A stretch of 64,000 bases of DNA from the NCBI GenBank assembly GCA_040905715.1, contig JBBDRA010000002.1:3746-67745 (forward strand). Direction: 5' to 3'. The notes under the pieces were generated by a model, which saw nothing but the letters and a program-made list of their open reading frames with translations, had not been told where the DNA came from and made no database searches. Both the position numbers and the translations under genes were made by a program. Shown here piece by piece: positions 5,971-54,713 of the stretch. Position 1 is the stretch's first letter. Each line of letters opens with the position of its first letter. This DNA comes from Minisyncoccota bacterium. Its GTDB lineage: Bacteria; Patescibacteriota; Minisyncoccia; Phycocordibacterales; CSBR16-193.

Positions 5971-5982
5971 CTCGACTCCGTA

Positions 5983-20458: not shown

Positions 20459-20746
20459 TTATGAATTTGAGGCCTTTTTTTCTTCCCGATCCAGCTCTGC
20501 CATCGCCTCACTTTCCTGCTTATCAATATCGCCCAGAAGCTTCATAGCCTCATCGAGTGTTTCGGCGTACTCTTCATTAAGATCGGTCATATACTGCATA
20601 TACGCGACCAGCATCTTCACCACCTGCTCACCCTGCTCCTTATCGCTTATCGGCCGGGAAACCAGCTCCTGGATCGCGACCTTCGCTTCGTCAAACTTCT
20701 CTTGTTCTAGAAGCGCTTTAACATCTTGAGTGACAGTGTTACTCAT
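20459..20746 (-). CDS. small alpha-helical hypothetical protein
   Basis: About 95 aa. The start at 20746 (MSNTVTQDVKALLEQ...) abuts the stop of the upstream 957-aa gene. Confidence 0.4.
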   Translation of the reverse strand: MSNTVTQDVKALLEQEKFDEAKVAIQELVSRPISDKEQGEQVVKMLVAYMQYMTDLNEEYAETLDEAMKLLGDIDKQESEAMAELDREEKKASNS

Positions 20747-23612
20747 GTTTATTTTGCTTATCGATACGGGCAATATGTTCGTTTATGATATCTATTTTAC
20801 AATCACGGCATTCATCTTCAGCGAGTTTCTCGTCCTCAAGCATCTCGCGTAATGCCACTACAACCTCATCGCGGTACCTTCGCACGGTCGCTGCATCCTT
20901 TCCTTCTGCTCGATCAGTAACACGTCTCAACCTGGCAGAAAGACCGTTTCCGAAGAAAGGATGCACCGGAGTATTCAAAACAGTATTCCTCACATCTTCC
21001 TTCACTAGCGGCAAAAACAACTTCTCGTAGTATTCCTTCAGGAACTTTTTCTCTTCAGAAGTTAGCTCATTCTTTGCTGCAATATCACGGGCTTGAGCCT
21101 TAAGAGCTTCCTTCTCTTTATCGCTCATTTCACTTGCCTCACTTTGACTCAGTGTGTGATACGCTTCAGCAAAAGACTCACCGGCAGTATCATGAACCTG
21201 TCGAGCTCCAGTGACCATATCAGCCGCTTTCCTCCGCAGGTTCTGGAACTTTTCGTGAAGAGCTTCGCGCTCTGACCCTTCTATTCTATCTGATCTGGTC
21301 GGCCACTCGCCGCGATCCTGAAGCTCCAGCTGAACGAGTCGCATCTCAGCGCGTATCTCTCGTACATCCTTTCGACGCCACGCACCGATACCAAGAACGT
21401 CGTGCACGGTTCGTTGAGCTTCCTGCTGTGCTTTGTATTTCTTAGAGAAGAGAGCGAAGACCGGAAGCATGAACCCGACACCGCTAAGAAATTCCATTGG
21501 CTTCTGCGCATCATCCAGAAGCTTGTGTCGTTTCAAGAGCTCCTTAACCTGCATCTCCTTGCGTGCGACCGTCGCGATAGATTCAGTATATCGCTGAGTG
21601 ATACCCTCAAGTTTTTGAGCACGTTCCGGATTACTCTCGGCGAGTGCTCTCAAATACTCTTTTCCTTTTTCCAGCTGTTCTGGAGAAATTCCGACCTGCT
21701 CACCAAGCTCATCGAACATCTGTTCCAAACTCACCGGCACGGATTCAGCCCTACTCTCCCCGTTACCCGGAGTACCTTCTACACCAGATTCTCCATCCGG
21801 AGCACCTTCTTTCGAAGACTCCTTCAAACCGCCAGCCTCACGGCCCATCATATTATCCTCCTCGAAGAGCGCGTTGTAGTCGGTTTTCTTTTGAGGTTCT
21901 CGTGGCAACTCCTTCTCCTTGTCTTTGTCCGGCTCGGCTTTCTCTTCCGCCCCCCTTTCTATTTTCTCGCGCATCTGCTTTTCGAGGGCTATTACGTTTT
22001 TCACGCACTTTTGTATCTCAGCAGGAACATCTTTTGTGAGTCTGTTTTCGTCTCGCCGACTTAACGCAGCATACACCGAGCTGAACACACGTCGTTTGTT
22101 CAATGAGTGCGGAAACTGATCCGCGTCGATCCGCAACACCGCGTCGATCACATCTTCTCGAGTGGGATTCACCATGTTTTCAAACGCTTCAGGTCCATAC
22201 CCTTTGCGCTCCCCTTCGGCTGACTGTTCTGTTGGCCCTTTCTTTTCTTGTACTTTTTCCCCTTTCTCACTTGTTTCTTTATCTCCACGCTGTTCCCACT
22301 CGTCCCATCTCATCATCTGTCCTTGTTCACTAAAACGATTCGGCCAGACGATCTTACCGCGCCCTCCGGAAGAAGGCTGATCCAGCTTAATCTCGGCAGC
22401 TTCATCAGTATCTGGCTGTGTCGACTCTTGATGCCCCGTTCCTCCCTCGACATCTCCTGTTTCAACCTCAAGATCAGCAACGGTCTGCGCTTTGTTTTTA
22501 TCAATAACTTCCTGCACTTTTTGTCGAAGCGCGCCAAGCGGCGGCGTCCTACGTACCACCTCATTACCAAGATCCTCTCTCACCGCAGACCATATAACGT
22601 CAGGCGATACCTGTACATCCTCGGGATCGGTTTCTATGGTTGTAACGTACTCTCTTGCTATCGGACCTACCTCATAAATAGTATCTTTGATCTTTTGTGG
22701 GGACGGATATTTCATCCTATCAAATTCATAGAACGGTCCGTCTTTCATCCATGGTTTCTCTTGCACGCCGCGCGGCCCACCCTTCTTTGAGGGCGGAGTA
22801 GTATCAATAACAACATCCTCATGCTCACCATCCGGCAACCTGACCTGCGAACGTCGCTTCACATATATCGTTGACCTTCGGGCATTATAAAGCACAGTGA
22901 GTAAGGCACCCGCCTCAACGGTCACATGAACATCTTCCAAATTTTCTACGATCCAGTGCTCTCCTGCGGGAACCGTTTCCCCATCAGGAATTTTAGTAAA
23001 TTCTTGTTTCTCTAACAGGTCATCAGTCTTCTCTTCCTCTGGCTCTGGCCCTGTATTTTGATTTGTTTCATTACCCAAAGACCGCTCTCTGCCCTCACTC
23101 TTCGGTGGTTTCTGTAGGTTATGACGACGAACGGGCCGCACCAGCTCCCGTGCCTCTTTAGCGTCGGGTGATTCATGAAACGGCACGGCGCGAGTCCATG
23201 CATGTATACCACCATGCTTTTCTTTATTTTCTCCTCCTTCGTTTTCTTTCTCTTGTGCAAGCTTTTCTTTTAGTTGCTGTCGTTTATTTTCGATCGCCGT
23301 TCGCAATAGTGGATATAGCGACCCCGGTTGTGGATTCATCTCTTCAAGCTCGATATCCTTATCTAAATCAGAAATATTTTTTTCTACCTGTTCATCAATA
23401 AACTCATTCCACTTTTCTTTTTCATCATCATTAAAATCAGCAGCTTTATCTATTGCAGCATGGATGCTTTCTACAGTGGCTTCCTCCACATTCCACAACT
23501 GCTCCTGAAACCCGTCAGGGATTCGCTTCCTCCCCGACTCATGCTGAATAGCGAGTTTCTTTTCACGGTTGATGTTTACCGGTCGGCCTTCCGGTTTTTC
23601 TGGAGATGTCAT
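20739..23612 (-). CDS. 957-aa highly charged (E/K-rich), predicted coiled-coil/disordered hypothetical protein
   Basis: Long uninterrupted ORF with one short hydrophobic segment (FLSGVGFMLPVFALFS). No catalytic motif seen. It lies immediately downstream of map. Confidence 0.55.
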   Translation of the reverse strand: MTSPEKPEGRPVNINREKKLAIQHESGRKRIPDGFQEQLWNVEEATVESIHAAIDKAADFNDDEKEKWNEFIDEQVEKNISDLDKDIELEEMNPQPGSLYPLLRTAIENKRQQLKEKLAQEKENEGGENKEKHGGIHAWTRAVPFHESPDAKEARELVRPVRRHNLQKPPKSEGRERSLGNETNQNTGPEPEEEKTDDLLEKQEFTKIPDGETVPAGEHWIVENLEDVHVTVEAGALLTVLYNARRSTIYVKRRSQVRLPDGEHEDVVIDTTPPSKKGGPRGVQEKPWMKDGPFYEFDRMKYPSPQKIKDTIYEVGPIAREYVTTIETDPEDVQVSPDVIWSAVREDLGNEVVRRTPPLGALRQKVQEVIDKNKAQTVADLEVETGDVEGGTGHQESTQPDTDEAAEIKLDQPSSGGRGKIVWPNRFSEQGQMMRWDEWEQRGDKETSEKGEKVQEKKGPTEQSAEGERKGYGPEAFENMVNPTREDVIDAVLRIDADQFPHSLNKRRVFSSVYAALSRRDENRLTKDVPAEIQKCVKNVIALEKQMREKIERGAEEKAEPDKDKEKELPREPQKKTDYNALFEEDNMMGREAGGLKESSKEGAPDGESGVEGTPGNGESRAESVPVSLEQMFDELGEQVGISPEQLEKGKEYLRALAESNPERAQKLEGITQRYTESIATVARKEMQVKELLKRHKLLDDAQKPMEFLSGVGFMLPVFALFSKKYKAQQEAQRTVHDVLGIGAWRRKDVREIRAEMRLVQLELQDRGEWPTRSDRIEGSEREALHEKFQNLRRKAADMVTGARQVHDTAGESFAEAYHTLSQSEASEMSDKEKEALKAQARDIAAKNELTSEEKKFLKEYYEKLFLPLVKEDVRNTVLNTPVHPFFGNGLSARLRRVTDRAEGKDAATVRRYRDEVVVALREMLEDEKLAEDECRDCKIDIINEHIARIDKQNKHE

Positions 23613-24530: not shown

Positions 24531-24586
24531 AATAAAATATTAGAGTTATATTAGAGTTAACTCTAATATAACTCTAATATTTTATT
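24531..24586. terminator. 56-nt perfect palindrome (TATTAGAGTTA motif x2 on each arm) abutting the kinase stop
   Basis: AATAAAATATTAGAGTTATATTAGAGTT / AACTCTAATATAACTCTAATATTTTATT. A U-rich tail follows on the minus strand. Confidence 0.6.
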
Positions 24587-37808: not shown

Positions 37809-39002
37809 TTATTCAACGATCTTTGTCACTACTCCAGCTCCCACAGTCTTACCCCCTTCGCGAATAGCAAAGCGCTGCTGCTCTTCGAGTGCAACCGGTG
37901 CCTGCAAACTTACGCTGAACGTAGTTGTGTCACCTGGCATTACCATCTCTACTCCTTCCGGAAGGGTTACCTCACCGGTAACGTCAGTGGTTCGGATGTA
38001 GAACTGTGGCTTGTATCCGGTTAGGAATGCTGTGTGACGACCCCCTTCCTCCTTCTTAAGGGTGTACACCTCAGCCTCAAACTTGGTGTGCGGGGTAACT
38101 GAGCCCGGCTTTGCCAACACCTGACCGCGGTGAACCTCTTCTTTCTTGAGTCCACGGATCAAAATACCGGCGTTGTCACCTGCTTTTCCTTCCTTAAGTG
38201 ACTTGTTGAACATCTCAATACCGGTCACTGTGGTCTTCTGTGTATCTTTGATACCGACGATCTCGATCTCTTCACCAACAGTGATCTCTCCTCGCTCAAT
38301 ACGGCCTGTTACTACAGTACCGCGACCTTCAATCGAGAAGATATCCTCAACCGGCATAAGAAACGGCTTGTCGGTCTCACGCTGAGGTGTCGGAATGTAG
38401 TCATCCAACGCCTTCGCAAGCTCAAGGATCTTTGCAGCATACTCTTCGCTTGCGTCTGAAGACTCAAGAGCCTTTAGGGCTGAACCTCGAATGACCGGCG
38501 CGTTTTCTCCGTCGTAATCGTACTGAGTCAAAAGCTCACGCACCTCTTCTTCAACAAGGTCGATAAGATCAGCGTCATCAACCATGTCGCACTTGTTTAG
38601 GAAGATGATGATCTTCGGCACTCCAACCTGCTTAGCGAGCAGGATGTGCTCTCGCGTCTGCGGCATAACACCGTCAGTTGCGGCAACTACTAATACAGCA
38701 CCGTCCATCTGAGCGGCACCCGTAATCATGTTCTTCACATAGTCGGCGTGACCCGGCGCATCGATGTGCGCATAGTGACGAGCATCTGTTGAATACTCGT
38801 TGTGAGACAATGCGATCGTAATACCGCGAGCCTTCTCCTCAGGCGCGGCGTCGATCTGGTCTACGTTCTTCTCTGACACGTCCTGCCCCGAAAGGTGGAG
38901 AACGTGCAGAATAGCAGCGGTTAAGGTCGTCTTCCCGTGGTCAACGTGACCAATGGTACCGACATTAACATGCTCTTTTGATCGATCAAATTCTGCAGCC
39001 AT
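37809..39002 (-). CDS. tuf: elongation factor Tu
   Basis: [52 protein letters not shown]. Confidence 0.97.
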
Positions 39003-39397
39003 AATGACGTACTACTAAAAGTATTGATAATAATTGCGTTTTGCCCCCACACCTATTTGTCCCAAACCTCCACTATAGAGAGAAACAAGTGTGGGGGTGT
39101 GTACCTCGATTGCACACCACATCCTGTGTATTCACAACCCTTCGGGGCTCATGAAAGACAAGAAAAAAGCGCACAATTGCGATGAAGACTATCCTAACAG
39201 ACCGCTGATAATAGTCAAGCGACTTTGTTTTCTTTTAAGCGAAGCCTTGTGCATTTTTTTCAAAATGCACGGAGCGGAGCGAATTAAAAAACACAAAATA
39301 CCCTGGTGACACGAAGGGAGGGCGAAAAAACGTTCTACATACGTGATTCGGTGATCCGTGAGCGTTTCTTCGACCACTCTCTTCTTCTCTTTCTCTT

Positions 39398-39586
39398 CTA
39401 TTTTTCCCAATCTCGGATGATAAACCGTTTGTTTGCCGGATCAACTTCGGCAACCACCCGCTGACCGTCCTGCCAGCCCAACTCACGAATACCACTGATC
39501 GGTAGGGTGAGACTGTAACTCACGCCGCCGACCTTGCTCAACACCCGCACCTCTTCTTCACCTGATTTACCTCGCGCCATACGCAC
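39398..39586 (-). CDS. small AbrB/MazE(SpoVT)-like swapped-hairpin DNA-binding protein (putative)
   Basis: 62 aa. LTLPISGIRELGWQDGQRVVAEVDPANKRFIIR resembles the AbrB-N/MazE fold consensus. It sits directly downstream of a TATTAGAGTTA palindrome. Confidence 0.4.
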   Translation of the reverse strand: MRMARGKSGEEEVRVLSKVGGVSYSLTLPISGIRELGWQDGQRVVAEVDPANKRFIIRDWEK

Positions 39587-39606
39587 TTGAAAGGTTATAC
39601 ATGGAC

Positions 39607-39641
39607 AATATTAGAGTTAAATTAGAGTTAACTCTAATATT
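39607..39641. promoter_or_regulatory. TATTAGAGTTA-containing palindrome (partial copy of the 24531-24586 palindrome)
   Basis: AATATTAGAGTTAAATTAGAGTTAACTCTAATATT, with the perfect core ATTAGAGTTAACTCTAAT. Confidence 0.5.
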
Positions 39642-39720
39642 GAGTATACACCAACAGGACGATCTTGTCGTTTGACCGGTAAAGAGCATCTCAAGTACGC
39701 CTTCCACCAGTGTTCTGCTG

Positions 39721-41679
39721 TTAATCAACAATAACCACCTCGTTATAGTCCCAGCTTCCCCGGCGATAAGGCGCAGTATCACCAAGCTTGGTATTTTCAA
39801 TATAGATATCCTTCACCGGTAATTCGGTCACGCCGAAGACTCGGCCGTGGAACCACGAATCTTTCACTACAAGATGGTCAGCTGATTCAATAGTGAGCGA
39901 GTGTGGCCACCACTTATCTTTTTCCTCGTGTCGATTTGAAAGCTCGATATTAACAAAGGCAATATCTTTGTCTGTGTCCCCTCCCATAAAGAACCCTTGG
40001 GAATGAATATCCTTTGTTGCTGTCACGCCGTATGCGATCTGATTCTTTGATGAGCCCAAAAGTTGATACACGTCGGGGTGTGCGGTTGGTACACCAGACT
40101 TATCACGGTCGACATCTTCCACTGAACTATTGAGCAGCAGTCGAGCATTAGTGAACGAGTCCTCACCGATACGATGAAGGTCCGTATTTCGCACAATGTT
40201 CCCGCTAAATCCTTTAACATTGTTCGTCAAAGAAGAATTCGTAATATGCGTACTAACCACGTCTGCGGACCAGCGAACACTGTTTGACCGCTCATTGCCG
40301 ACAATATTCAGATCATCCATCCAAATATGCCGGGCAAAACGCCCACCAGCAGAATGAGCATGGAAAAGGATCCCTACATCCGGCAACTGAAAGCGAATGC
40401 CACTGACCAGTAAATGATTATTAGTAAAACGTTCCTTTAAATTGTTCGTAACAATAACGTCATTCCGTGATGTGCCGGGAGCACCGGAAACGACCACCCA
40501 GGTATCACTATCAATACCTTCCAGTCTAAATCCGTCATACGTACCTGCCTGTAGATATATCACCGGCGCTCGACTACCATCGTTTTTGGCTGCCACGCTC
40601 GCCTTCCATACGGTCTTATACGGGTTATTTTTTGAGCCGTCACCGCTCTCATCCGACCCCCCAGGCGATACATAGTAGTGATCGGGGTCATACGTTCCAT
40701 TCTTGTTAACCACTAGCTCAATGCCATGCTCGCCGCGCGGAGCACCATTAATATCTCCGGCCAACACCCGTGCCACCCCTTTATTTGGATATACCACCGC
40801 CCGCACTTCAACCGGGCCATCTACGCTGAACTTAGACGCATCAAGAGTTGCCCAGTATTCCTTCACATCAGTGCGCGGATTATGAGTCATTGTAGAGACT
40901 GAAGTCCATGGACCGCCATCGACCGAAAACTCAACCCGATCGATGCTGTCTTTATGAAAAGCAACAACTCCCACATTAAATATATTGGAAAATGACTGGA
41001 ACGGCACCACATCCCACCGAGCGATCGCCTGGGCATCTTCATTCCCGATCTGGTCAGGTTGAGGGGTCTCTCCTGCAAAACCATTTCCAGGAACGAGAAC
41101 TTTTCCTTCCGGAGCAGAGGTGTCTCTTTCCTTCTCCTCTTCTTCTCTCGTATCTTCTTGTTCATCGTCACCCTGCCCACTAACACCATCGTCTTTCTTG
41201 TTGGCAGTATCGTCGTTCTCTTCTTCGTTATTTTTTTCTTTGTCTGACTCCTGATCCTCCTTATCTTCCTCGTCCGCTTCGTCTCTAGAATCTCTCTCAT
41301 CCTTCGATCCATCATCTTCCGACTCCTCTGAGTCTGGTTCATCCTGCTTCTCAACGTCGTCTTCAGATCTATCTTCACTCTCATCTGCTTGATCCGGCTT
41401 AGTATCATCTTCCTCATCATTCTGTTCCTCTTCACGACCTTCTCCATTATCAGCCGAATCTCTAGACGTTTCTTCCACTTCCTCCTCAGTTTCATCGTCC
41501 TTTAAAGCGGTCTTCTCCTCTTTGCTACTATCATCAGACTCACGTTCCTCGTGCGGCACCACCGTTAAAGAGTTAGTGTCGTCGTTTTCCGTCCCAGAGG
41601 GGTTTGATGCACCAGAAACACCCCCGGCAAGTAAAACGAGGAGGAGCATTGGAAACAGGACTGAGTTTTTGTTTGCCAT
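39721..41679 (-). CDS. secreted right-handed parallel beta-helix (pectate-lyase/DUF1565-like) protein with long acidic low-complexity linker and Ig-like domain
   Basis: Signal peptide MANKNSVLFPMLLLVLLAGGVSGAS, then a D/E-rich linker of about 170 aa. YYVSPGGSDESGDGSKNNPYKTVWKASVAAKNDGSRAPVIYLQAGTY is the hallmark start of a beta-helix domain, followed by repeated N/S-rich beta-helix rungs. It is inserted between fusA and tuf. Confidence 0.6.
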   Translation of the reverse strand: MANKNSVLFPMLLLVLLAGGVSGASNPSGTENDDTNSLTVVPHEERESDDSSKEEKTALKDDETEEEVEETSRDSADNGEGREEEQNDEEDDTKPDQADESEDRSEDDVEKQDEPDSEESEDDGSKDERDSRDEADEEDKEDQESDKEKNNEEENDDTANKKDDGVSGQGDDEQEDTREEEEKERDTSAPEGKVLVPGNGFAGETPQPDQIGNEDAQAIARWDVVPFQSFSNIFNVGVVAFHKDSIDRVEFSVDGGPWTSVSTMTHNPRTDVKEYWATLDASKFSVDGPVEVRAVVYPNKGVARVLAGDINGAPRGEHGIELVVNKNGTYDPDHYYVSPGGSDESGDGSKNNPYKTVWKASVAAKNDGSRAPVIYLQAGTYDGFRLEGIDSDTWVVVSGAPGTSRNDVIVTNNLKERFTNNHLLVSGIRFQLPDVGILFHAHSAGGRFARHIWMDDLNIVGNERSNSVRWSADVVSTHITNSSLTNNVKGFSGNIVRNTDLHRIGEDSFTNARLLLNSSVEDVDRDKSGVPTAHPDVYQLLGSSKNQIAYGVTATKDIHSQGFFMGGDTDKDIAFVNIELSNRHEEKDKWWPHSLTIESADHLVVKDSWFHGRVFGVTELPVKDIYIENTKLGDTAPYRRGSWDYNEVVIVD

Positions 41680-41789
41680 AGAATAAAATATGTGGCTGAA
41701 ATAACACATCAATCTATACTATAAAAAAAGACAAAGCGCAAGGGCTTTGTCTTTTTTGTATCTTGGTTTCTCTCTTGATCGGGCGAGAT

Positions 41790-43943
<2,154 letters not shown>

Positions 43944-44049: not shown

Positions 44050-44520
44050 TTAAACAGCGAAGTGAGCAAAAGCTTTGTTTGCGTCTGCCATTCGGTGCAG
44101 GTGATCTTTCTTAGTCACCGCATCCCCTTCGTTGTTGTACGCGGCAATGATCTCTGTTGCAAGCAGGTCTGCCATAGGCTTACCGCTCTTAGAGCGCGCA
44201 GCTTCAATAATCCATTTCATCGAGAACGCCTGTCGACGACTCGGCTTCACTTCACGCGGTACTTGATAGTTCGCACCACCAACACGACGAGAGCGAACCT
44301 CCATGGTCGGCGTTGTGTTCTTAAGAGCTGCCTCAAAGATCTCGAGGGGGTTTTCGACTTTCATATCTTTGCCAACTTTTTCCAAAGCACCGTAAACAAT
44401 CTGGCGAGCTCGCTCTTTTTTGCCTTCCCACATCACGTAGTTGATGAACTTCGCGACGGTCTCGGAATTATAGACGACGTCAGGCTTCAGCGTATGTTTT
44501 TGAGTGATCGGTTTTCTCAT
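44050..44520 (-). CDS. rpsG: ribosomal protein S7
   Basis: KFINYVMWEGKKERARQIVYGALE...RRVGGANYQVP. Confidence 0.93.
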   Translation of the reverse strand: MRKPITQKHTLKPDVVYNSETVAKFINYVMWEGKKERARQIVYGALEKVGKDMKVENPLEIFEAALKNTTPTMEVRSRRVGGANYQVPREVKPSRRQAFSMKWIIEAARSKSGKPMADLLATEIIAAYNNEGDAVTKKDHLHRMADANKAFAHFAV

Positions 44521-45086: not shown

Positions 45087-45737
45087 TCAGAAAAGCGCGT
45101 TCAGGGTTTGAAAGAGGATCTGTGGATCACCGACCAGCATTCCAAAGACCGTGAAAATAGCATAGCCCAGTATATTGGTTGAGAAGAGAATAAAGATCAC
45201 CGCGATGATCAAAATAAAGCTGTACTGCTCCATGAATCGCCGGATTCCATAGTATCGTGCCGGCAGAAAGGCGAACAATACCTTCGATCCATCAAGTGGC
45301 GGCACCGGGATCATATTGAAGAGCGCAAGAACAATATTGATCAAAACGATCATTACCGAGATCTGCACCACGGCCGGTGAGAGGGTGTCGAGGGGGAGGG
45401 TGAATCGCAGAAAAAGACCGAAGACGATCGCGATAGAGATGTTAGTGACCGGACCGGCGATAGCCACCCAGAGCTCTCCCCAGCGCTGATCGCGGAAATT
45501 ATATGGATTATACGGAACCGGCTTGGCCCAGCCGATCAGAAACGGAGAGCTAGTGAGCAACAAAAGCCCTGGCAACAGAACCGATCCGACCATATCGAGA
45601 TGTACAATAGGGTTAAGCGTAAGGCGGCCCTGATACTTCGCGGTCGGGTCACCCTGCATCAGAGCAACGTATCCGTGGGCCACCTCATGAATAACCACAG
45701 ACATAATAAGAATAGCGATAAGAAAGATGATCTCCAT
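45087..45737 (-). CDS. site-2 protease family (M50-like) membrane zinc metalloprotease
   Basis: HEVAHGYVA HExxH motif within TM1, further TM helices, and GPVTNISIAIVFGLFL. Confidence 0.7.
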   Translation of the reverse strand: MEIIFLIAILIMSVVIHEVAHGYVALMQGDPTAKYQGRLTLNPIVHLDMVGSVLLPGLLLLTSSPFLIGWAKPVPYNPYNFRDQRWGELWVAIAGPVTNISIAIVFGLFLRFTLPLDTLSPAVVQISVMIVLINIVLALFNMIPVPPLDGSKVLFAFLPARYYGIRRFMEQYSFILIIAVIFILFSTNILGYAIFTVFGMLVGDPQILFQTLNALF

Positions 45738-45864
45738 ACAGGATCTTTAAAGAATTACAAAATGAGTTACGTACTTTGTTTGTTACATTCATTATTGCCG
45801 TTCCTTCTTGGCAAAAAGTTTAGCTTATGATAGCATAGCGAAGCATAAAGAAGAAAGAAAACCT

Positions 45865-46107
45865 ATGGCTAAATCTTGCCCAATAACTGGAAAAACATCA
45901 CAAGTCGGCGGAGGATACTCCAACGACGTTCGTGCTACGCAGTACAACCCGACAGGAAAACGTCGTCGAAGTGTCAACCTACAAAAAAAGACGATCTTCG
46001 TTCCCGAACTGGACCGCTCTGTTACCCTGCACCTCTCCACCAAGGGTATTAAGACCATAAACAAGAAAGGGGCGTACCAAGCACTCAAAGACGCCAAGGT
46101 GATCTAA
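45865..46107 (+). CDS. rpmB: ribosomal protein L28
   Basis: MAKSCPITGKTSQVGGGYSNDVRATQYNPTGKRRRSVNLQKK matches the L28 consensus. The open frame begins at 45808; start set at the internal Met at 45865. Confidence 0.75.
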   Translation: MAKSCPITGKTSQVGGGYSNDVRATQYNPTGKRRRSVNLQKKTIFVPELDRSVTLHLSTKGIKTINKKGAYQALKDAKVI

Positions 46108-46187: not shown

Positions 46188-49100
46188 CTAAAACTCCTCG
46201 TACCGTGGATCCACAGAAATATTGATCTTGTTGTTAGCACTACCAGGCACTTCACATTCAGTATACGTACCACCGTCACTGGATACTTCGGGTGAATCTT
46301 TCTCTCCAACCGTACTGTACCGAATGTCGATCTCATCTCCGCTGGAAGAAACTTCGGATCCTTCAGGAACAGACCATATATATGTTTCCCCGCCAGGAAT
46401 CACAACCCATGTCACTGACGTATTAACAGGATAGGTATATGTTCCGTCTTCGTTTGGAAGTGGCTCACAGCTGAGAGTGGTTGACGTTTCGCAACTATTG
46501 GTCGTGACCGTAACCGAATCAGATCCATACGATTCACTCGTATTATCGCTGTTGACCGCCTCTACTTTATAAACATACTCTGTAGAAGTTGCAATTGTTG
46601 GAGGTGATGACACTGCCGGGTCTCTATATTCCGTATCAGCGACTGTCTCAAGAGATGAGAACGCTAAATCCGGTTCCGTTGACAACTTCCTAAACACCTC
46701 ATACCAGATCCCTGCTGTAGTTCCGTCCCAATCCAATTCTACGTACGCATCGTTTGCATCACAGCTTTCTGTAGCCTGTAGGTCAGTCGGCTCAGGCTCA
46801 CATACCGAAACTGATGCCGTATCTTCCACCAAAGTACCGTCTGATGCCGCCGCGCATTGCAATGTGTACTCGTATAGTGACTCGGTATTTGTTAGACCGA
46901 CCTGCGTATCGCTTCCCCCAGCAGAACTTTTGTTTCCTGTCCAATCCCCCGAGGAGGAAGAAGCGGAACAAAACTCTTCAAGCGCACCGGCGGTTTCCCA
47001 CTCCAGATCAATATCGCTTCCATATGGCACACACCCGCCCCCGTCTCCTACTGAGTTTCCGCCACTAAACGCCTCCAGATCCACAGATTCCTCTTCAAGA
47101 TAGAGGAAAGCCACGTGCGTTATCAAACCTTCCGGAATAGACGGAGAAACATTCGTCACTGAGCACCACCCACCACTGCACGTCGGCGTTATCGTGTAGA
47201 GCGCCGGATCAGAGAAGTCACAAGATTCTGTGATCTCGATACCTGTTTCAGGACTCATCTCGTATTCATCTACACACGTCGCCGCCCTAATAGTCCTGTC
47301 CGGATCGTCTTCGGCTTTAACGGTATAGGTGTACTGTTCACCGGTCGCAAGATCGCCGGCCGGTAGATCACTCCAATTCTGTGGATTCCCGTCGTACACA
47401 CCATCCGGAATGTTCATCTCTTCGTCAGGTGTGAACTCCGGCTCGAGCTGCGTATTCATCGGGACACGCACACCTCCTTCATCAACCCGGTGAGAGCTAA
47501 TATCCCCGGCAAGCGGACACAGATCGGAACCCGCTACATCTGCACTGTTTGAAATACAGATATCCATGATAACTCGGCCGAGCGCGCTAGGGAGATTAGC
47601 GTCTAACTCAGACTGACTCATCGAAGCGTAGTCATCCGAACTATATTCTACTTCAATGTAATATTCCTTGATTCGAACTTCTTTGCCTTTTATCAAAGGG
47701 ATCTCACCTTCTACAGTATCCGGTTCGAACTGTGGCTGACCGGTAACAGTATATGTCCGGTCTTCGAGGTGTTCCCACGCCGCATCAGGATCAGACAGAT
47801 CTCGCTGTTCAAGTACAATGACAAAATCATGACTTTTACCGGGAACCAGATCATCTACTTCAAATGAATACTCAACCTCACGCGCATCGACCTCGTAGAG
47901 GTCCATCCGATGAGCTTTGATATACGTACTTGCAGCGCCGTCATAAGTGGTGGTATATTCTCCGCCACTACTCCGAACATGATCAAGTCGGTTTTTTGCG
48001 TCGTTATAAAGATCGTCCGTTGTTCTTTCATCTAAGAAATCTATCTTTCTGTCGAAAGTCCAGTCAAGATCATTAGGGTCTGTGTCATCAGTTATGTTCG
48101 AACCACATCGGCCGTACAAACCGGCCCGCTCTAGATGAGAAACATATTCGGTGTACCGATCCTGATAGACATCTGGCTGACACTCGCCGTCTTCTGTTCC
48201 TTTAGTACACGAGCTTCTACTCGCCCTCCTGGCAGGACCCGTCTCACCATCATCCCGCACTGTTACCAACCTACCATCCTCATCATACTCATACCCAAGG
48301 TCCCAATCGAACTCTCGGTGTATACTACAATATCCCCACGTTCTATTTCCCGCATTATCTTCTCGCTCCCCTTCATCATACCCGACCCCACTATACTCAT
48401 CGGTATCTAAACACCTGTTTTCCCCCACATCATATTGTTCCTGCTGAGTGCGTAACCTGTCTCGATTACCTGAACTAAACTCATATCGACTTTCGTTTGT
48501 GTAAACCTGAGCATCTTGTTCATAGAAGAGATCTTCTTCCCAGGTCTCGAACCGACGCGGCTTCATATCTTCCGAAAAATGATATGTATATGCACCGCTC
48601 CAGTCCGACTGCTCAAGCTTCTCATTTATAGTCATGTCACCCCAAGAATCCATACAACTATCTATGCACTGATCATATTCATTAGAACCCCACTCATACC
48701 CTTGCTCCCAACAATGGGTATCGCAAGCATAGTATGCGTCATCCCACACTTGAAACTCTTCATTTTCATCGTAATAACCATAGCCCTCTTCAAGCCCCCT
48801 AAACCCACAGACCGGAATTTCATCTCTCACGATCGTATATTCACGTGAAATTCTCGGGTCGGGTACAATATAATTATTTGCCGACACCATTACAGGGAGA
48901 ATAGCTGCCTCACCCCACGCACCGTTTGGCGCGAGGTACTCCCCCGGCTGTGACTGGTGTTGCGAATTAAAGTAATAATATGTATGCGAGAAGCCTTCAT
49001 ACGAACTCGACCCATACCAATACCCCCACCCGTAGTAACCATACGGATCACATGTTCCGCTAGAGAATCCATCCGGTCCTAGAGCACGATCCTCATTAGA

Positions 49101-50837
49101 GCGAAGGTGGTTAACTTTCCCACGAACTTCGTGACAGAGAGTGTCTTTGGTCAAAACCGTATACGCACCACTAACGGTAAAGCTGTCATTAGGTCCATAC
49201 GCTTCTTCGGTATACGGTTTAGGGTTATTTATATGAATAACCGGAGAGAAGGTCTCGCCAAACATTAAAGCGCGCAGTGATATTTCATCAGGACCGAGAA
49301 TTATTCTTTGATCATCGATATTTATTTCAAACCCACCTACGCCGGTATCATTCCACCCACAACCGGTACAATCGCTATCGTGATCGGAAAACACCGTCTG
49401 CACCGCAACAAACGCAGCTCCGGCTACGATCAGAGCCGCAAAGAGAAGCGCGACAGGAATAGAATTTTTACCTTTTATCAATAATCCCTTTAGCTGAAGC
49501 ACAACAAGGACAACGAGTACGAGAAGTAAAACACCGACTGTTACTACAAAACCACCCCCTTCTGTATCTGTTTGCACACCAGAAACAGGGAAGAAGGTCG
49601 TGTATTCACCAAGCACTTCACCATTTTTTTCGATCTTCACTTCTACTGTTACGTCCTCATCTATCGAATTTATGAAAGACACAGGCAGCGTAACGATCTG
49701 AGAGTCACTTGTCAGATGTACCCCCTCTTGTTTTGTGTGTGCAACCTCATTTCCGGATGAGTCTTTCATACTCAAGATCATCTCAGCGTTGGTTATCTCG
49801 CTTGATGTTCCGTCTCTATTACTTCGCACGAACTCACCTTCTTCATTTCGCGTATATCGAATTCTTCCGGAGGTATCCGGAAGAGATTGTGGCCCCACAA
49901 AAAGGACGTTTATTTGAGACTCTCTTTCTTGAGGTGGCCACACTTCAGGGGTGATGCTGTAAATAGTAGCGCTCGGACCGGCAACACTGAATTGACCTTC
50001 TACAAGGGGTGTCCGCGAGACACCATTCTCATCTCTAAACTCTACACGAAACGCAAATGTTCCGGGAGCATCAGTTGGAAGTGGTATTGAAATAGTCTGT
50101 TCTTCTCCCTTCGAAAACGCAACGGTTTCCACTTCTGTCTCTTCAATAATATCACCGGCGACCGAGACCTTAAAAACCTGAAGATGTGGGGTAAGCTCTA
50201 TCGCTTCTTCTTGCTCATTTTCCAGTGTGACTGCTATTTCTAGGTCGTCAGAGCTTGTAACCACACCTCCAGCCTGAGGCGGCGCGCGGTCTTGTGAATT
50301 TCGAATTAATTCTGCTGAATCAATACGAACCTCCCCGCCACTTCCCCGGACCTCTACGCGAACATCTTCCCACCCCAGCAATACACCTTGTCCGGTCATT
50401 GCCTGGACCTGGATCGCGGTGTCGCTTCGGTCTACCGCCTCCGGAATCGTGTACGAAAATTCAATTTCTCGCTCTTCGCCCGGCAAAAGAAAGATCGGTC
50501 CTTCAATTATAGAACTGTATACACGATCGGCTACCTCGCCTTCACGCTCATCAAAACCGGCCACTAATGAAATACGATACTGAATATCTGTGGCAACGCT
50601 GTCGGACGTATTCTTTAGTAGTGCGGTGCCAACTGCGCGCTCTCCCGCTTCAAATACTTTAGTTTCGTTTTCAAGCTCAAGACCGATAACATGCACTGAT
50701 GGAACCACGGAACGAATTGAGTTCTGCTGTTGCGCTGCTGCTTCAGTTGTATTCGATACAACTAAAAATGTAAAAAGGAGAAAAAATATCACTACAAGAA
50801 AAGCAACAAACGAAAGAACGGGGGTTTTAAAGATCAT
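46188..50837 (-). CDS. giant (1549 aa) surface protein: N-terminal signal/anchor, ~420-aa domain, two-helix TM hairpin, large Cys/Tyr/Asp-rich region with FN3-like domain, conserved C-terminal domain ending VDPRYEEF
   Basis: Uninterrupted 4.65-kb ORF. N-terminal hydrophobic VLSFVAFLVVIFFLLFTFLVV. Central VVTVGVLLLVLVVLVVLQL-KGLLIKGKNS-IPVALLFAALIVAGAAFVAV forms the TM hairpin. An FN3-like segment reads AYVELDWDGTTAGIWYEVFRK. The C-terminal ~95 aa are homologous to the C-terminus of the adjacent 1223-aa ORF. Confidence 0.8.
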   Translation of the reverse strand: MIFKTPVLSFVAFLVVIFFLLFTFLVVSNTTEAAAQQQNSIRSVVPSVHVIGLELENETKVFEAGERAVGTALLKNTSDSVATDIQYRISLVAGFDEREGEVADRVYSSIIEGPIFLLPGEEREIEFSYTIPEAVDRSDTAIQVQAMTGQGVLLGWEDVRVEVRGSGGEVRIDSAELIRNSQDRAPPQAGGVVTSSDDLEIAVTLENEQEEAIELTPHLQVFKVSVAGDIIEETEVETVAFSKGEEQTISIPLPTDAPGTFAFRVEFRDENGVSRTPLVEGQFSVAGPSATIYSITPEVWPPQERESQINVLFVGPQSLPDTSGRIRYTRNEEGEFVRSNRDGTSSEITNAEMILSMKDSSGNEVAHTKQEGVHLTSDSQIVTLPVSFINSIDEDVTVEVKIEKNGEVLGEYTTFFPVSGVQTDTEGGGFVVTVGVLLLVLVVLVVLQLKGLLIKGKNSIPVALLFAALIVAGAAFVAVQTVFSDHDSDCTGCGWNDTGVGGFEINIDDQRIILGPDEISLRALMFGETFSPVIHINNPKPYTEEAYGPNDSFTVSGAYTVLTKDTLCHEVRGKVNHLRSNEDRALGPDGFSSGTCDPYGYYGWGYWYGSSSYEGFSHTYYYFNSQHQSQPGEYLAPNGAWGEAAILPVMVSANNYIVPDPRISREYTIVRDEIPVCGFRGLEEGYGYYDENEEFQVWDDAYYACDTHCWEQGYEWGSNEYDQCIDSCMDSWGDMTINEKLEQSDWSGAYTYHFSEDMKPRRFETWEEDLFYEQDAQVYTNESRYEFSSGNRDRLRTQQEQYDVGENRCLDTDEYSGVGYDEGEREDNAGNRTWGYCSIHREFDWDLGYEYDEDGRLVTVRDDGETGPARRASRSSCTKGTEDGECQPDVYQDRYTEYVSHLERAGLYGRCGSNITDDTDPNDLDWTFDRKIDFLDERTTDDLYNDAKNRLDHVRSSGGEYTTTYDGAASTYIKAHRMDLYEVDAREVEYSFEVDDLVPGKSHDFVIVLEQRDLSDPDAAWEHLEDRTYTVTGQPQFEPDTVEGEIPLIKGKEVRIKEYYIEVEYSSDDYASMSQSELDANLPSALGRVIMDICISNSADVAGSDLCPLAGDISSHRVDEGGVRVPMNTQLEPEFTPDEEMNIPDGVYDGNPQNWSDLPAGDLATGEQYTYTVKAEDDPDRTIRAATCVDEYEMSPETGIEITESCDFSDPALYTITPTCSGGWCSVTNVSPSIPEGLITHVAFLYLEEESVDLEAFSGGNSVGDGGGCVPYGSDIDLEWETAGALEEFCSASSSSGDWTGNKSSAGGSDTQVGLTNTESLYEYTLQCAAASDGTLVEDTASVSVCEPEPTDLQATESCDANDAYVELDWDGTTAGIWYEVFRKLSTEPDLAFSSLETVADTEYRDPAVSSPPTIATSTEYVYKVEAVNSDNTSESYGSDSVTVTTNSCETSTTLSCEPLPNEDGTYTYPVNTSVTWVVIPGGETYIWSVPEGSEVSSSGDEIDIRYSTVGEKDSPEVSSDGGTYTECEVPGSANNKINISVDPRYEEF

Positions 50838-51041: not shown

Positions 51042-54000
51042 TTAAAATTCCTCGTAACGCGGATCAACAAAGATCTGTATTTCACCTTCGCATCTACTTC
51101 CATCATCTAGCACTGCATCAGCATCTATTGTACCTACTGTACTATATCTAATTATTATATTGTTCTCAGTTTCACCATCAATTTTACTTTCGTCTTCGTT
51201 ATCACTCCACTCTACAAATTTACTGTCGGGGCTCGCCACCCAGGTAACTTGTGAGTTAACCGGCGCACGGCCGTCTTCTATCTCATTTCCGTCACTGTCT
51301 TTGAAGGTCACCGTACATCCTCCACCAATTGGCGGCACAGGGCAGGACGGATCCTCTTTTTTACACGGACCCCAACCCTGCCAATCCCCCCAATCCCCAC
51401 CAGAGGAGCACTCTCTCACACGGGTCTGGTCACCATCACACCCGTCTATGGTACATTTCTCAGTTTCGTCCTGTGTTTTCCCTGGTGTACACTCATCGTC
51501 AGGGACCCCATCATCACCATCGCCATCACCATCACCGTTATCATCATCGTCATCGTCGATCGGACAGTCGGGATTAACCTTTTCAAGACCCTCACACTCG
51601 CCCCAAGCAAATGAGCCATCACCATTCTTCGGCCAAACTCCGTCCGCTGTACACACAATGGTCTGGCTCCCTTCCAAGTCGCAACCATCACCATCTTTTT
51701 CTCCACATGAGCGCTGCATTGTGTCACCAGGCTCACACATATCATCGCCGGCGATCGTCAACCATCCCACATGATGTCCGACGGGTTCATCGAGCCACGG
51801 CATGGTCTCGTCACTAAATTCTTCGAAGTACGCGTCACCTATGTACATCTCCATTACATTTGAGTCAGGCTCGAGTGAGTCCGTAACATAATCATACCCT
51901 TCTTCGTCACCTACCATTGTGTAACTTCGCTCTTGGGTTTGATAGTCCGGATACCCCCATGGGTCACAGTACTCTTCTCCATCGTATTCATAGCAGTACT
52001 CAGAATACGTGCCATCCCATGTAATGATCTCTACTTTAAGAGTTTCTTCTACATTTTCAGCTAAGCGTCGAGCTCTGATAATGAAATCCGATCCGTTTGC
52101 GTTCGCCGACGACCGATTTCTCAGATATTCAGGAAGATAATAGTATGCGTATCCGCCGCCGCCATCACCATACGAGAGATACTCAGCCTCGTCTTCGCTG
52201 TACCCCTGATCTAGGCGATCAGCTTTTCGATCGGCGCGTTCACTGGCCACCCTACTCCTGTCGCTTGCAAGGTCCCCCTCTAGTTCATCTCTGGCATCTT
52301 CTAACGTAAGCTCATCCGAGAGCTGAATATCACTGAAACCACTATGAGAACTCCAAACACAGTTTCCCCAAACACATGAGGAACCGGAGTGCTCTCCTGA
52401 AAATCTGCGTCGAGTTTCAGTTTCAATACGATCATTTTCTTCATCTATATCGCTATGCCCCTCTCCTATATACACACCATTGTACATAGGTGCGGTGTCG
52501 TTAGTGGTACCTGAGTCTATAACTTCACCTCGACTTATGCGTTCCCAAGAACAGGATATGTCAAGTTTGCCTTCTTCAAGATCCTGCCCTACATCACTAC
52601 AATCCGATTCCCTTACACCCGTTCCTCCATACGATTTTTTAAAAACATCGTAACTACCAGAACCGGACACATTCGTAATCACACACCTATCTTCCTCTTC
52701 ATCGAAACTCCACTCCCGAGTAAGATTACCTGAGTGAGTTCCTTCCCGAGACCCATCAGCCCACGACCTTTCAAACGTATCCGAACCGGATTTAGCTTCT
52801 GTCTGAAACAATCGCCGACTGTCTTCTCCGTCAACCTCAAAACCGTTACGCCCACAAAATGTCGGTCTGGCGTTATACGGATCATGCCTGAAGCTCACAG
52901 TGGGACGAGGGATCGCGATGTTCTTAATATCGATCGTCACATCATAACGACCGATATTAGGAGGAAGTCCGTAAATAGAACCTCGAGGAGCCCGGTACTT
53001 CCAAAGACCACCGTACGTGCTGTAACGATCGAACTCTTCGTTTACATACCTGCTTTCGCTCGGCACGTACATACCTTTCCCTTCCACCTCAACTCGCTGG
53101 CCTGCGCCGCCAGATATCGGAGGCCGCTCGATGAAGACCCGTATGGCCGTAGTTTGATCGCCCGATAAATGAACGGTTTTACTTGGAGCAACATCAACCA
53201 CCTCGATCGGGATCAGGTTTACTCCAAGAGGATACTCGAGCTCAAAGAACATTCTATACGCTGACCCATGATCAGCGAAAACAAAAGAGTAAGAAACCGC
53301 GAAAACAACAAGGATCCCGAGTCCAGCCATCGTTTTTTTGAGACCACGACGCAGTAAAGCCAGGAGAGTAAGAGCAAAGAGTAGTCCTGCCAGAACAACA
53401 GCGGTCCAAAAAATAAATAGCCAATAGCTTCCATTAAGTCCTTCGCCGGTAGAAGAAGAAAGGTCTACGCTTTTCTCACCAATAACTGATCCGTCCTTAT
53501 AGATCTTTAGTTGTACACTATTTGCGGTGGCGAGTTCAGTTACCGGAACATCAAGCTCCATCAACCCCTGTCCTGAAAGATCCAGACTCTCAAATGTCTC
53601 TTCATGTACCACATTTTTACTTTCATCAAATAAAACAAGTGTGGCGGCAACCGAGCTTACGTCCCCGTGATCATCGGGATATACAGGGTTGTTATTATCA
53701 TCTACGATAATAACTGACCCCGGTCTGCCAATATCTGCAGGAGGTCCTTCATACACAGCGGTCACTATCCCACTTCCGGAAGTCGATATGTCTTCCTTGT
53801 TTGACCCAAGTAAATGAAGTGTCACGAAATCACCTCGCACAATATACCGAAAATTAACCGCCGGGGAACGAACTTCGCCCGTCTTGGCATCAACAAATCT
53901 TAATTCACCGGCATACACCCCAGACTCATAGAGATCTCCTCCGTTGAGCTGAGAGGTTGGCAGCTCATACAAGTATGAATAACTATCACCTGAGGAAACT

Positions 54001-54713
54001 GTTATTGAGTCACGGGTGGTGGTATGCGGGTCGCCGGCTGGGTGAACATCATACAGCCGTATTTCTGGAACAACCTCGATAGACTCATCGTATGGATTGT
54101 GTATTGACCCCTCTATGGCAGGTCGGTCACCTCGTGACTGGTACACGCTCGGTATATCAAAAATGTCATATTCTGAAACCCTGTTTCCCGGATGACGCAC
54201 AACTAATGACGCACTCTCTGCTGGAAGCAGGGAGTTCTCCCCGTCAACAATGATGTTCTGCTCTGCATATGAGCGCACCTGCCCGCTCGGGAGTGCCGCG
54301 AGAACCGAGAGAACGACCTGATCGCCGGCAACATGCCGGGGAAGTTTATATGAGAAAGAGATCGTTTTACTCTCATTCGGACTCAAAGAAATCGGCTTAC
54401 TTGAAACATATTCGATGACCGAGTGTCCTACCCCTTCCACAGGAGCTTCAATGCCCACGTAGTACACTGCGTCTGGAATTGAAAATGAGTTGGGATTTTC
54501 TACAACCAATGACCCTTCGATCGTATCGCCGGAAGCGAACGTATTTGTAGGTAAGGGCTCAATAGCAACTTCCAAACCTGGAAGCGATTCGGCACTCTCG
54601 CTTTCTGATACCTGTCCGTACACCGGTAGCGTAACGGTGATAAGCGTGATCACCGCAAGAGCAAGACTGATCAAAACAATATTCAGTCGAAAAAGAGAAG
54701 CGAGGGAGTTCAT
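51042..54713 (-). CDS. giant (1223 aa) surface protein, paralog of 46188..50837: same N-terminal anchor, TM hairpin at the same position, Cys/Asp-rich modules including a poly-Asp/Gly-Asp stretch, and a conserved C-terminal domain ending VDPRYEEF
   Basis: N-terminal hydrophobic segment. KTISFSYKLPRHV matches REIEFSYTIPEAV in the paralog. TM hairpin LFIFWTAVVLAGLLFALTLLALL-RRGLKK-TMAGLGILVVFAVSYSFVFA at aa 429-480. DCPIDDDDDDNGDGDGDGDDGVPDDECTPG. C-terminal ...IRYSTVG...VDPRYEEF. Confidence 0.8.
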   Translation of the reverse strand: MNSLASLFRLNIVLISLALAVITLITVTLPVYGQVSESESAESLPGLEVAIEPLPTNTFASGDTIEGSLVVENPNSFSIPDAVYYVGIEAPVEGVGHSVIEYVSSKPISLSPNESKTISFSYKLPRHVAGDQVVLSVLAALPSGQVRSYAEQNIIVDGENSLLPAESASLVVRHPGNRVSEYDIFDIPSVYQSRGDRPAIEGSIHNPYDESIEVVPEIRLYDVHPAGDPHTTTRDSITVSSGDSYSYLYELPTSQLNGGDLYESGVYAGELRFVDAKTGEVRSPAVNFRYIVRGDFVTLHLLGSNKEDISTSGSGIVTAVYEGPPADIGRPGSVIIVDDNNNPVYPDDHGDVSSVAATLVLFDESKNVVHEETFESLDLSGQGLMELDVPVTELATANSVQLKIYKDGSVIGEKSVDLSSSTGEGLNGSYWLFIFWTAVVLAGLLFALTLLALLRRGLKKTMAGLGILVVFAVSYSFVFADHGSAYRMFFELEYPLGVNLIPIEVVDVAPSKTVHLSGDQTTAIRVFIERPPISGGAGQRVEVEGKGMYVPSESRYVNEEFDRYSTYGGLWKYRAPRGSIYGLPPNIGRYDVTIDIKNIAIPRPTVSFRHDPYNARPTFCGRNGFEVDGEDSRRLFQTEAKSGSDTFERSWADGSREGTHSGNLTREWSFDEEEDRCVITNVSGSGSYDVFKKSYGGTGVRESDCSDVGQDLEEGKLDISCSWERISRGEVIDSGTTNDTAPMYNGVYIGEGHSDIDEENDRIETETRRRFSGEHSGSSCVWGNCVWSSHSGFSDIQLSDELTLEDARDELEGDLASDRSRVASERADRKADRLDQGYSEDEAEYLSYGDGGGGYAYYYLPEYLRNRSSANANGSDFIIRARRLAENVEETLKVEIITWDGTYSEYCYEYDGEEYCDPWGYPDYQTQERSYTMVGDEEGYDYVTDSLEPDSNVMEMYIGDAYFEEFSDETMPWLDEPVGHHVGWLTIAGDDMCEPGDTMQRSCGEKDGDGCDLEGSQTIVCTADGVWPKNGDGSFAWGECEGLEKVNPDCPIDDDDDDNGDGDGDGDDGVPDDECTPGKTQDETEKCTIDGCDGDQTRVRECSSGGDWGDWQGWGPCKKEDPSCPVPPIGGGCTVTFKDSDGNEIEDGRAPVNSQVTWVASPDSKFVEWSDNEDESKIDGETENNIIIRYSTVGTIDADAVLDDGSRCEGEIQIFVDPRYEEF

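Follow-up and report, generated by a model that had tools for sequence, protein, structure and literature searches.

AbrB and MazE are autoregulated proteins, and each of their genes is preceded by a symmetric DNA site. The controller (C) proteins of restriction-modification systems, in turn, are helix-turn-helix proteins. Glycanases, lyases, and epimerases of the beta-helix fold, such as AlgG/AlgE, WceF, and RbmB, are typical of polysaccharide biosynthesis clusters. The genomes of the Candidate Phyla Radiation (CPR; Patescibacteria) are generally regarded as poor in recognisable transcription factors, and very little is known of the control of gene expression in them. Here, a 64-kb stretch of DNA, called the window below, was analysed from a metagenome-assembled genome (MAG) of Candidatus Paceibacterota, a CPR lineage. 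In the window, a gene for a predicted secreted beta-helix protein and a gene for a small predicted AbrB-fold protein lie between fusA and tuf. In Escherichia coli and Salmonella, fusA and tuf belong to one operon, rpsL-rpsG-fusA-tufA (PMC6735719). Small insertions of unrelated genes at boundaries within the translation supercluster are documented in Proteobacteria; an example in Salmonella is bfd-bfr-hopD, which lies between str and S10 (Brandis et al. 2019, PMC6735719).

On the minus strand of the window, the genes are arranged in the order rpsL, rpsG (44050-44520), fusA, the gene for a 652-aa protein, the gene for a 60-aa protein, a gap of 395 nt, tuf, rpsJ, rplC, and the rest of the S10 cluster (Table 1). 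The distance from fusA to tuf is ~2.8 kb, and the contiguous order of the classical str operon is not found. This order of open reading frames (ORFs) agrees with an earlier note on the same DNA, which had placed two genes between fusA and tuf. The same locus is present, with identical sequence, in GCA_040881535.1 and in several Logan assemblies. As in the Salmonella insertion, accessory genes unrelated to translation would lie at a transcription-unit boundary of a conserved cluster. Unlike the Salmonella case, the boundary here is that of fusA and tuf, the host belongs to CPR, and one of the inserted genes encodes a putative DNA-binding protein with its own predicted operator. The best joint explanation, which we consider reasonably probable, is that the fusA-tuf junction is a transcription-unit boundary hosting two unrelated accessory genes, one for a glycan-active exported protein and the other for an autorepressing AbrB-fold protein.

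The terminator predicted after fusA was found by RNA folding; a simple pattern scan for terminators did not list it. Its folding energy (dG) is -17.4 kcal/mol with a z-score of -5.9, and 0 of 200 shuffled sequences fold as well. In a relative, L006 (GCA_040880645.1), a terminator of different sequence and equal strength is observed at the same position after fusA. Upstream of tuf, a block of ~65 nt with TTGACT-N17-TAGGAT is kept in three lineages, represented by the window, L006, and a second relative, L007, while the surrounding DNA is not kept. In this block, the spacer and the first ~30 transcribed bases are also conserved. The promoter block and the leader are together at window 39003-39230 (minus strand), L006 2570-2846, and L007 1085-1278. 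The tuf leader is ~190 nt long and includes a long hairpin, whose position and CCCC/GGGG base are constant among the three lineages and whose sequence differs. The z-scores of the hairpin fold are -3.3, -8.0, and -4.9 in the window, L006, and L007, respectively. Rfam gave no family match for the leader, which may represent an undescribed leader for the tuf-S10 unit. Scans for tRNA genes and Rfam families in the whole window and in 38900-39800 revealed no tRNA, RNA gene, or known leader in the fusA-tuf interval, with chance-level matches only (E > 0.5).

Because of the terminator after fusA and the conserved promoter and leader that belong to tuf itself, the junction looks like the boundary between the rpsL-rpsG-fusA unit and the tuf-S10 unit, or an inter-operon spacer, not the interior of an operon. 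The predicted terminator and the separate tuf promoter argue against the co-transcription of fusA and tuf; it is from such elements that we infer the actual transcript boundaries. In this lineage, the junction would behave as an operon boundary tolerant of insertions, where two unrelated accessory genes settled. The insertion itself is a modest curiosity, and none of the findings here overturns a known principle.

The comparison with relatives separates the two genes from each other. L006, whose small protein is 78% identical to that of the window, lacks the beta-helix gene: its fusA is followed by a strong terminator, the operator, the small gene, and tuf. In L007, whose small protein is 88% identical, the 3' end of a beta-helix gene (80% identity over 239 aa) is followed by a terminator and then by the operator and the small gene. 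The small gene is observed between fusA and tuf in three lineages only, and the large gene in at least two of them, consistent with the suggestion in the earlier note that the insertion is lineage-restricted, not widespread and ancestral. Neither EF-G nor EF-Tu is encoded at any of 69 more distant metagenomic loci of the small-protein family, and the fusA-tuf position was rejected as a typical position of this family. A profile search detected no homologue of the large protein near the small gene at 69 other family members. The idea that the two genes constitute a conserved module was rejected on the same ground and by the gene content of L006. Since L006 lacks the large gene and no large-protein homologue is seen at the 69 loci, the two genes are, judged by these loci, independent residents of one spacer, and occupation of the fusA-tuf position is a peculiarity of this small clade. 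Only a part of the clade would have acquired, or else kept, the large gene.

The large gene is a real gene. Its C-terminal 239 codons show a proportion of nonsynonymous differences (pN) of 0.11 against a proportion of synonymous differences (pS) of 0.78 in comparison with one relative. Its GC content is 0.479 vs 0.483 for the window, with no compositional sign of recent transfer. Residues 1-25 of the protein show, as read by eye, the n/h/c layout of a Sec-type signal peptide. Residues 26-195 are 46% Asp and Glu and 9% hydrophobic. A 202-aa Lys/Arg-rich ORF in another frame (40887-41495, minus strand) overlaps this polyacidic linker; it arises from the GA-rich codons and does not represent a gene. 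The AlphaFold2 model, based on an alignment of 51 homologues, has a mean predicted local distance difference test score (pLDDT) of 89.6 and a predicted template modelling score (pTM) of 0.91, and consists of a beta-sandwich domain followed by a multi-rung beta-helix. The helix is a right-handed parallel one with stacked three-strand rungs, as in the pectin-lyase-fold superfamily. Composition, model, and fold matches together uphold the domain organization read in the earlier note: a signal peptide, an acidic linker, an Ig-like domain, and a beta-helix. It is likely that the protein is exported via the Sec-type signal peptide and carries the polyacidic segment as a long tether.

Pfam and NCBIfam gave only sub-threshold matches to the large protein: Big_7, DUF1565, and a Leptospira surface-protein family. 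The match to DUF1565 (PF07602) scores 17.3 bits against a cut-off of 20.3 and covers only positions 3-39 of the 257 positions of the profile, corresponding to an N-terminal cap motif. Thus, by its modelled structure the protein is in the pectin-lyase-fold superfamily; it is not DUF1565 by the Pfam threshold, and it is placed in no CAZy family. More than 315 homologues of residues 188-652 were found by database search, the best non-self one being 45% identical. Named homologues come from Phycisphaerae, Sumerlaeota, and Hydrogenedentes, and several contain dockerin or FN3 modules. In the densely covered Ig-like domain, RWD..P.Q, H242, W258, E274-Y275, R293, and R304 are conserved. In the beta-helix, W453, T480, R497, D507, H534-P-D536-V-Y-Q539, N546, and Q561 are invariant or near-invariant. 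W453, T480, D507, H534, and Q561 are spaced by 27 residues, corresponding to one rung, and the secondary-structure string of the model places them within or beside the first strand of consecutive rungs. This string suggests that they share one face and form a conserved groove. D507, H534, D536, R497, and Q539 were identified by conservation.

The Foldseek search of the large protein against PDB was weak, and the top fold matches are enzymes. The enzymes compared were Vibrio RbmB (9ozd), Pantoea WceF (6tgf), the alginate C5-epimerases AlgE4/AlgG (2pyg, 4nk8), and PL6/PL9/PL31 lyases. The large protein shows 8-16% sequence identity to them, and the sequence match to solved structures is restricted to the N-terminal cap motif (YVS..GSD..GDGS...P). 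An invariant HPDVYQ motif of its own and, at the N-terminus, a strongly conserved Ig-like domain set it apart from those enzymes. The large protein also has the 170-aa polyacidic linker and stands alone, outside any polysaccharide cluster. The three closest homologues examined adjoin genes for a Wzx-type flippase, GT2/GT4 glycosyltransferases, a methyltransferase, and sulfotransferases. Because the closest homologues are in exopolysaccharide biosynthesis clusters, in other phyla, the large protein is probably a secreted enzyme that cleaves or modifies glycans, most likely an extracellular or cell-surface polysaccharide. The main alternative is that it is a non-enzymatic surface adhesin or coat component on an acidic tether. 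This is considered rather unlikely, as enzymes lead the fold matches, the invariant residues aligned over successive rungs include Asp, His, Arg, and Gln, and homologues are found within polysaccharide biosynthesis clusters. With this protein, a large uncharacterised family linked to exopolysaccharide clusters gains a member from a phylum and a context that are both new to it.

The small gene is also real. The ratio of nonsynonymous to synonymous substitution rates (dN/dS) is 0.05-0.08 with synonymous sites near saturation, indicating strong purifying selection and confirming that the AbrB-like ORF of the earlier note is conserved. The AbrB/MazE fold proposed there is corroborated by the Pfam matches of the family, an AlphaFold2 model, and Foldseek. 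Among 43 aligned family members, 39 match the Pfam family MazE_antitoxin/SpoVT-AbrB (PF04014) at E <= 0.01, the best at 1.7e-10. The family profile matches AbrB-family chains in PDB at E 0.02-0.03, and the nearest solved sequences are AbrB-family proteins of Sulfolobus. The monomer model (pLDDT 85.9) has a beta-beta-alpha-beta-beta topology with strands at residues 14-17 and 21-24, a helix at 28-34, and strands at 42-47 and 52-57, as in the swapped-hairpin b1-b2-a-b3-b4 fold. SpoVT, MazE, AbrB, or Sso7c4 account for 15 of the 16 top Foldseek matches to PDB (SpoVT 2w1t; MazE 2mrn, 1ub4, and 1mvf; AbrB 1yfb and 2k1n; Sso7c4 5itj and 2l66), with probability up to 1.0 and template modelling (TM) scores of 0.5-0.66. 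The small protein thus resembles the N-terminal domain of AbrB, SpoVT, and MazE (PF04014; archaeal Sso7c4 2l66, 5itj, and 5itm) in predicted topology and in its best sequence and fold matches. It also shares with AbrB and MazE a small basic N-terminal arm and a symmetric DNA site before the gene. In contrast to AbrB, SpoVT, and MazE, it is the domain alone (60 aa), without a C-terminal part for oligomerisation, toxin binding, or sensing. It belongs to a distinct Parcubacteria/Paceibacterota family; there, the candidate operators take the form of long perfect palindromes, whose 11-bp-phased half-sites vary with the protein subclade.

A word-based search detected only the two relatives of 88% and 78% identity. 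A profile search of 1.84 billion cluster representatives detected 167 proteins at E <= 1e-3, nearly all of 56-65 aa, with the consensus MARRKLEERNIRKLTKxGGxSYxVTLPIExIRxLGWxExQKVVVE...IKDWKK. In their sources, they are named hypothetical proteins of Parcubacteria/Paceibacterota or carry automatic labels of PrlF-type antitoxin (JGI). No paper describing a ~60-aa AbrB-fold family was found in a limited collection, by full-text search for AbrB with Patescibacteria, Candidate Phyla Radiation, or restriction-modification controller proteins. The family is widespread in Parcubacteria/Paceibacterota and apparently undescribed.

A same-strand gene starts within 150 nt downstream of the small gene, often only a few bases away, at 29 of the 53 family loci with enough sequence. 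The downstream genes encode enzymes for glycans or small molecules (GT4/GT2 glycosyltransferases, a methyltransferase, a radical S-adenosylmethionine enzyme, and a pyridoxal phosphate-dependent decarboxylase), housekeeping proteins (CofD, TsaD, RecO, and RpiB), and proteins of the conflict type (RhuM-Fic, NgoPII- and Eco47II-type endonucleases, a methylase-endonuclease fusion, and GmrSD). Perfect palindromes with arms of at least 8 nt are found within 100 nt upstream of the small gene at 43 of 65 family loci (66%), compared with 1.7% (11 of 650) of control windows on the contigs of these loci. The classes of candidate operators follow the protein subclades: ACAGAG-TTAA-CTCTGT, ACAGAG-ATAT-CTCTGT, TGAAT-TAAT-ATTCA, TACGTA arrays, and GC.CTAG...TTTAAA. 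These features are the signature of small autoregulated DNA-binding proteins usually heading an operon. With at least 167 cluster representatives and operators that can be read from the DNA and covary with the protein, the family would be a tractable system for regulator-operator specificity, and it offers candidate cis-elements for annotating CPR promoters.

The family resembles C proteins in that a small putative autoregulator has its own palindromic box upstream and same-strand cargo genes downstream, and some members lie directly upstream of NgoPII- or Eco47II-type endonuclease genes. Unlike C proteins, the small protein has an AbrB-type beta fold and no helix-turn-helix. The window has no endonuclease gene after the small gene; the next gene is tuf, 395 nt on, with its own promoter. 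The combination of a palindromic box and a co-oriented endonuclease gene is found only in the family members L041, L047, L071, and L079. Family members with their own palindrome directly before conflict-type genes are seen at L041 720-1886, L047 369-1422, L071 5001-6742, L079 5001-6409, L025, and L037.

In the window, the palindrome ATTAGAGTTAACTCTAAT at 39621-39638 occupies the centre of a 35-bp element, in which three half-sites are phased by 11 bp. This element begins 3 nt past the TATACT hexamer, which the promoter scan pairs with ACGACA at 17 nt. In the comparison of the window, L007, and L006, TATACT and the element are the sole conserved island of the spacer. The element is identical in L007 despite a pS of 0.66 at synonymous sites. 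That of L006 has the same architecture, with every half-site switched from ATTA-GAGTTA to CTCC/CTCG-GAGTTA (CTCCGAGTTA sites). From these palindromes, it is probable that the small protein binds DNA as a dimer or tetramer, its targets being the 11-bp-phased TATTAGAGTTA half-sites. Because the half-sites begin 3 nt past the -10 box that serves its own gene, the small protein is regarded as a putative autorepressor, which, bound just past this box, would repress its own transcription. The position of the operator fits autorepression of the small gene, not control of the upstream beta-helix gene.

A second candidate operator, with arms of 28 nt, starts directly behind the stop codon of an AA_kinase (pyrH-like) gene, and 86 nt separate it from the start codon of map. 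This AA_kinase-map spacer belongs to the secY-adk-map part of the ribosomal cluster. With one mismatch or less, the 11-mer is found at only two loci in the 64 kb, with 7 matches vs 0.87 expected, and 0 of 100 shuffles reach 7. It is likely that the four-half-site copy upstream of map is a second target of the small protein. In another relative, L088 (760-868; map 61% identical), the AA_kinase-map spacer contains ACGAAT/ATTCG direct and inverted repeats, a different motif at the same position as the second palindrome of the window.

A wider interpretation is that the 60-aa protein represents an undescribed, Parcubacteria-wide class of minimal AbrB-fold regulators, each with a long co-evolving palindromic operator, which would form a portable, self-limiting promoter module for the gene downstream. 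Here, the module would be wired into the translation supercluster, with its promoter towards tuf-S10 and a second operator before map. We regard this interpretation as unlikely. If true, it would represent an AbrB-fold counterpart of C proteins, found also before genes for glycosyltransferases and housekeeping proteins, and one tiny repressor would modulate some of the translation machinery of an organism that has very few regulators.

Several points weigh against the explanation by a unit boundary with an autorepressing small protein and an independent beta-helix gene. Binding, repression, and transcription are inferred here. The small protein of the window itself scores 18.1 bits against PF04014, under the curated cut-off of 24.7. 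The second operator is not conserved: in L087, whose map is 77% identical, the AA_kinase gene and map overlap, leaving no spacer. Conservation of the map-upstream operator in relatives was rejected for L087 on this basis, and because the site is absent there, a conserved regulon is not established. Phased half-site arrays can exist apart from the small gene, as 11-bp-phased GAGTTAACTC arrays of a similar kind are found in Saccharimonadales genomes where no family member lies within 4 kb. With three genomes, the gain of the large gene in one branch and its loss in L006 cannot be told apart. Both palindromes would form very stable RNA hairpins. Lastly, because the promoter-like match of the large gene is only weak, read-through from fusA may matter for its expression.

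A scan of the whole collection for the four-half-site architecture detected the contig of L006 itself, four loci of Saccharimonadales/Saccharibacteria, and one Prevotella contig. The loci other than L006 were rejected as a guide to the regulon, as no homologue of the small protein is in the fetched flanks. The 11-bp-phased CTCGGAGTTAA arrays of Saccharimonadales/Saccharibacteria MAGs, similar to the L006 operator, are at L009 3705-3736, L010 2581-2612, L011 6855-6890 and 7831-7862, and L013 4828-4859. The array of L010 is inside a large ORF whose N-terminus is UvrC-like by eye, and the two arrays of L011 flank a 283-aa ORF.

The palindromes might instead be RNA hairpins, such as terminators or elements for processing or stability, with an incidental location near the small gene. 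The folds of both sites are very stable (dG -35.4 and z-score -8.6 for the site before map), the site before map lies between a stop codon, which it directly follows, and a U-rich stretch, and changes between lineages keep the complementarity. However, each arm contains direct 11-bp repeats that a hairpin does not need, and all four half-sites change in concert in L006. Canonical G+C-rich terminators are already present upstream of the site in L006 and L007, and the site before the small gene has no U-tract. The association of the palindrome with the small gene over the control windows and its covariation with the protein subclade also make this explanation quite improbable, and autorepression by the small protein through the palindrome is preferred.

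It is also very unlikely that the small gene is an orphan antitoxin or a remnant of a mobile cassette (toxin-antitoxin or restriction-modification controller), which has lost its partner and has no regulatory role beyond itself. Its MazE/AbrB fold, the antitoxin labels given by JGI to some relatives, and the members directly before genes for RhuM-Fic, NgoPII, Eco47II, the methylase-endonuclease fusion, and GmrSD are compatible with such an origin. However, no toxin is found next to it as expected for a type II antitoxin (MazE/VapB/PrlF): Pfam matches neither of the two flanking ORFs (73 and 77 aa), no adjacent toxin-like ORF is conserved, and the 3' flank is unconserved in L006 and L007 until the tuf promoter. 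The fold fills residues 14-57 of the 60 aa, leaving no C-terminal extension for binding and neutralising a toxin. The strong purifying selection, the operator perfectly kept across lineages, the second operator copy elsewhere, and the many members before TsaD, RecO, RpiB, and CofD genes also weigh against this explanation.

The earlier note had proposed that the beta-helix gene rides on str transcription for high expression and that the adjacent AbrB-like protein regulates it via the palindrome. The large gene is indeed co-oriented with fusA and starts 110 nt downstream of it, and the scan gave no strong sigma-70-type promoter for it. A candidate promoter, TTGATG-N16-TATTTT (41685-41712, minus strand), read by eye, matches at 8 of 12 positions, below the scan threshold. 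It ends 6 nt before the ATG of the large gene, so that the mRNA would be leaderless or nearly so; no Shine-Dalgarno sequence is visible. In the window, the RNA fold scan found no canonical terminator between the large and small genes, and a read-through transcript of fusA, the large gene, and the small gene is possible. Against this proposal, the strong predicted terminator follows fusA, tuf has its own promoter block and leader, and L007 has a terminator between the large and small genes. The palindrome is downstream of the stop codon of the large gene, just past the TATACT of the small gene, and no copy of the motif is found near the start of the large gene. L006 retains the small gene and the operator without the large gene, and the two families are unassociated at the 69 other loci. 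Neither half of the proposal is borne out, and as a whole it is improbable; the small protein would act without specific control of the beta-helix gene.

Table 1. Positions of the genes and predicted elements discussed in the text, numbered along the window.
Feature	Position	Strand	Remarks
fusA (EF-G)	41790..43943	-	717-aa ORF; end of the rpsL-rpsG-fusA unit; Pfam EF-G domains in the record of the identical L001/L002 gene
Predicted intrinsic terminator after fusA	41723..41759	-	14-bp stem, 6-nt loop, 3' arm into U-tract
Gene for the 652-aa predicted secreted beta-helix protein	39721..41679	-	Long ORF 39721-41712; start ATG at 41679 is that of the NCBI record
Large protein, predicted signal peptide, aa 1-25	41605-41679	-	
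Large protein, polyacidic linker, aa 26-195	41095-41604	-	
Large protein, predicted Ig-like domain and right-handed beta-helix, aa 196-652	39724-41094	-	
TATACT, candidate -10 box of the small gene	39643..39648	-	Promoter scan: ACGACA-N17-TATACT
Candidate operator, three 11-bp-phased half-sites (TATTAGAGTTA / ACTCTAATTTA ACTCTAATATT)	39607..39641	-	Contains the palindrome ATTAGAGTTAACTCTAAT
Gene for the 60-aa predicted AbrB/SpoVT-fold protein	39398..39580	-	Short ORF 39398-39586; start ATG at 39580, common to all homologues
Candidate tuf promoter, TTGACT-N17-TAGGAT	39191..39218	-	Scan lists N16, N17 on recount; within the ~65-nt conserved block
Long hairpin in the tuf leader	39044..39096	-	CCCCC...GGGGG base
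tuf (EF-Tu)	37809..39002	-	Followed by rpsJ and the S10 cluster
Second candidate operator, 56-bp perfect palindrome	24531..24586	not assigned	Four TATTAGAGTTA-type half-sites; motif scan

There is no evidence for a prophage or a defence locus, as PHROGs gave only marginal matches (a tail protein at E 5e-4 and a family of unknown function at E 1.4e-3) and PADLOC gave none.

Two very large minus-strand ORFs are found upstream of the rpsL region, at 46188-50837 (1549 aa) and 51042-54713 (1223 aa), with no Pfam match at E <= 1e-5. Their assignment as rpoBC was rejected for the lack of Pfam matches, and no claim is made on rpoBC linkage. Between these ORFs and rpsL are a Peptidase_M50 gene (45087-45737) and rpmB (45808-46107, plus strand). 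Directly downstream of map, a 957-aa ORF (20739-23612, minus strand) has many charged residues and no Pfam match. The window also contains a tmRNA gene at 5520-5973 (93 bits) and, at 2587-2659, a gene for tRNA-Ile with the anticodon TAT, an uncommon bacterial way of reading AUA.

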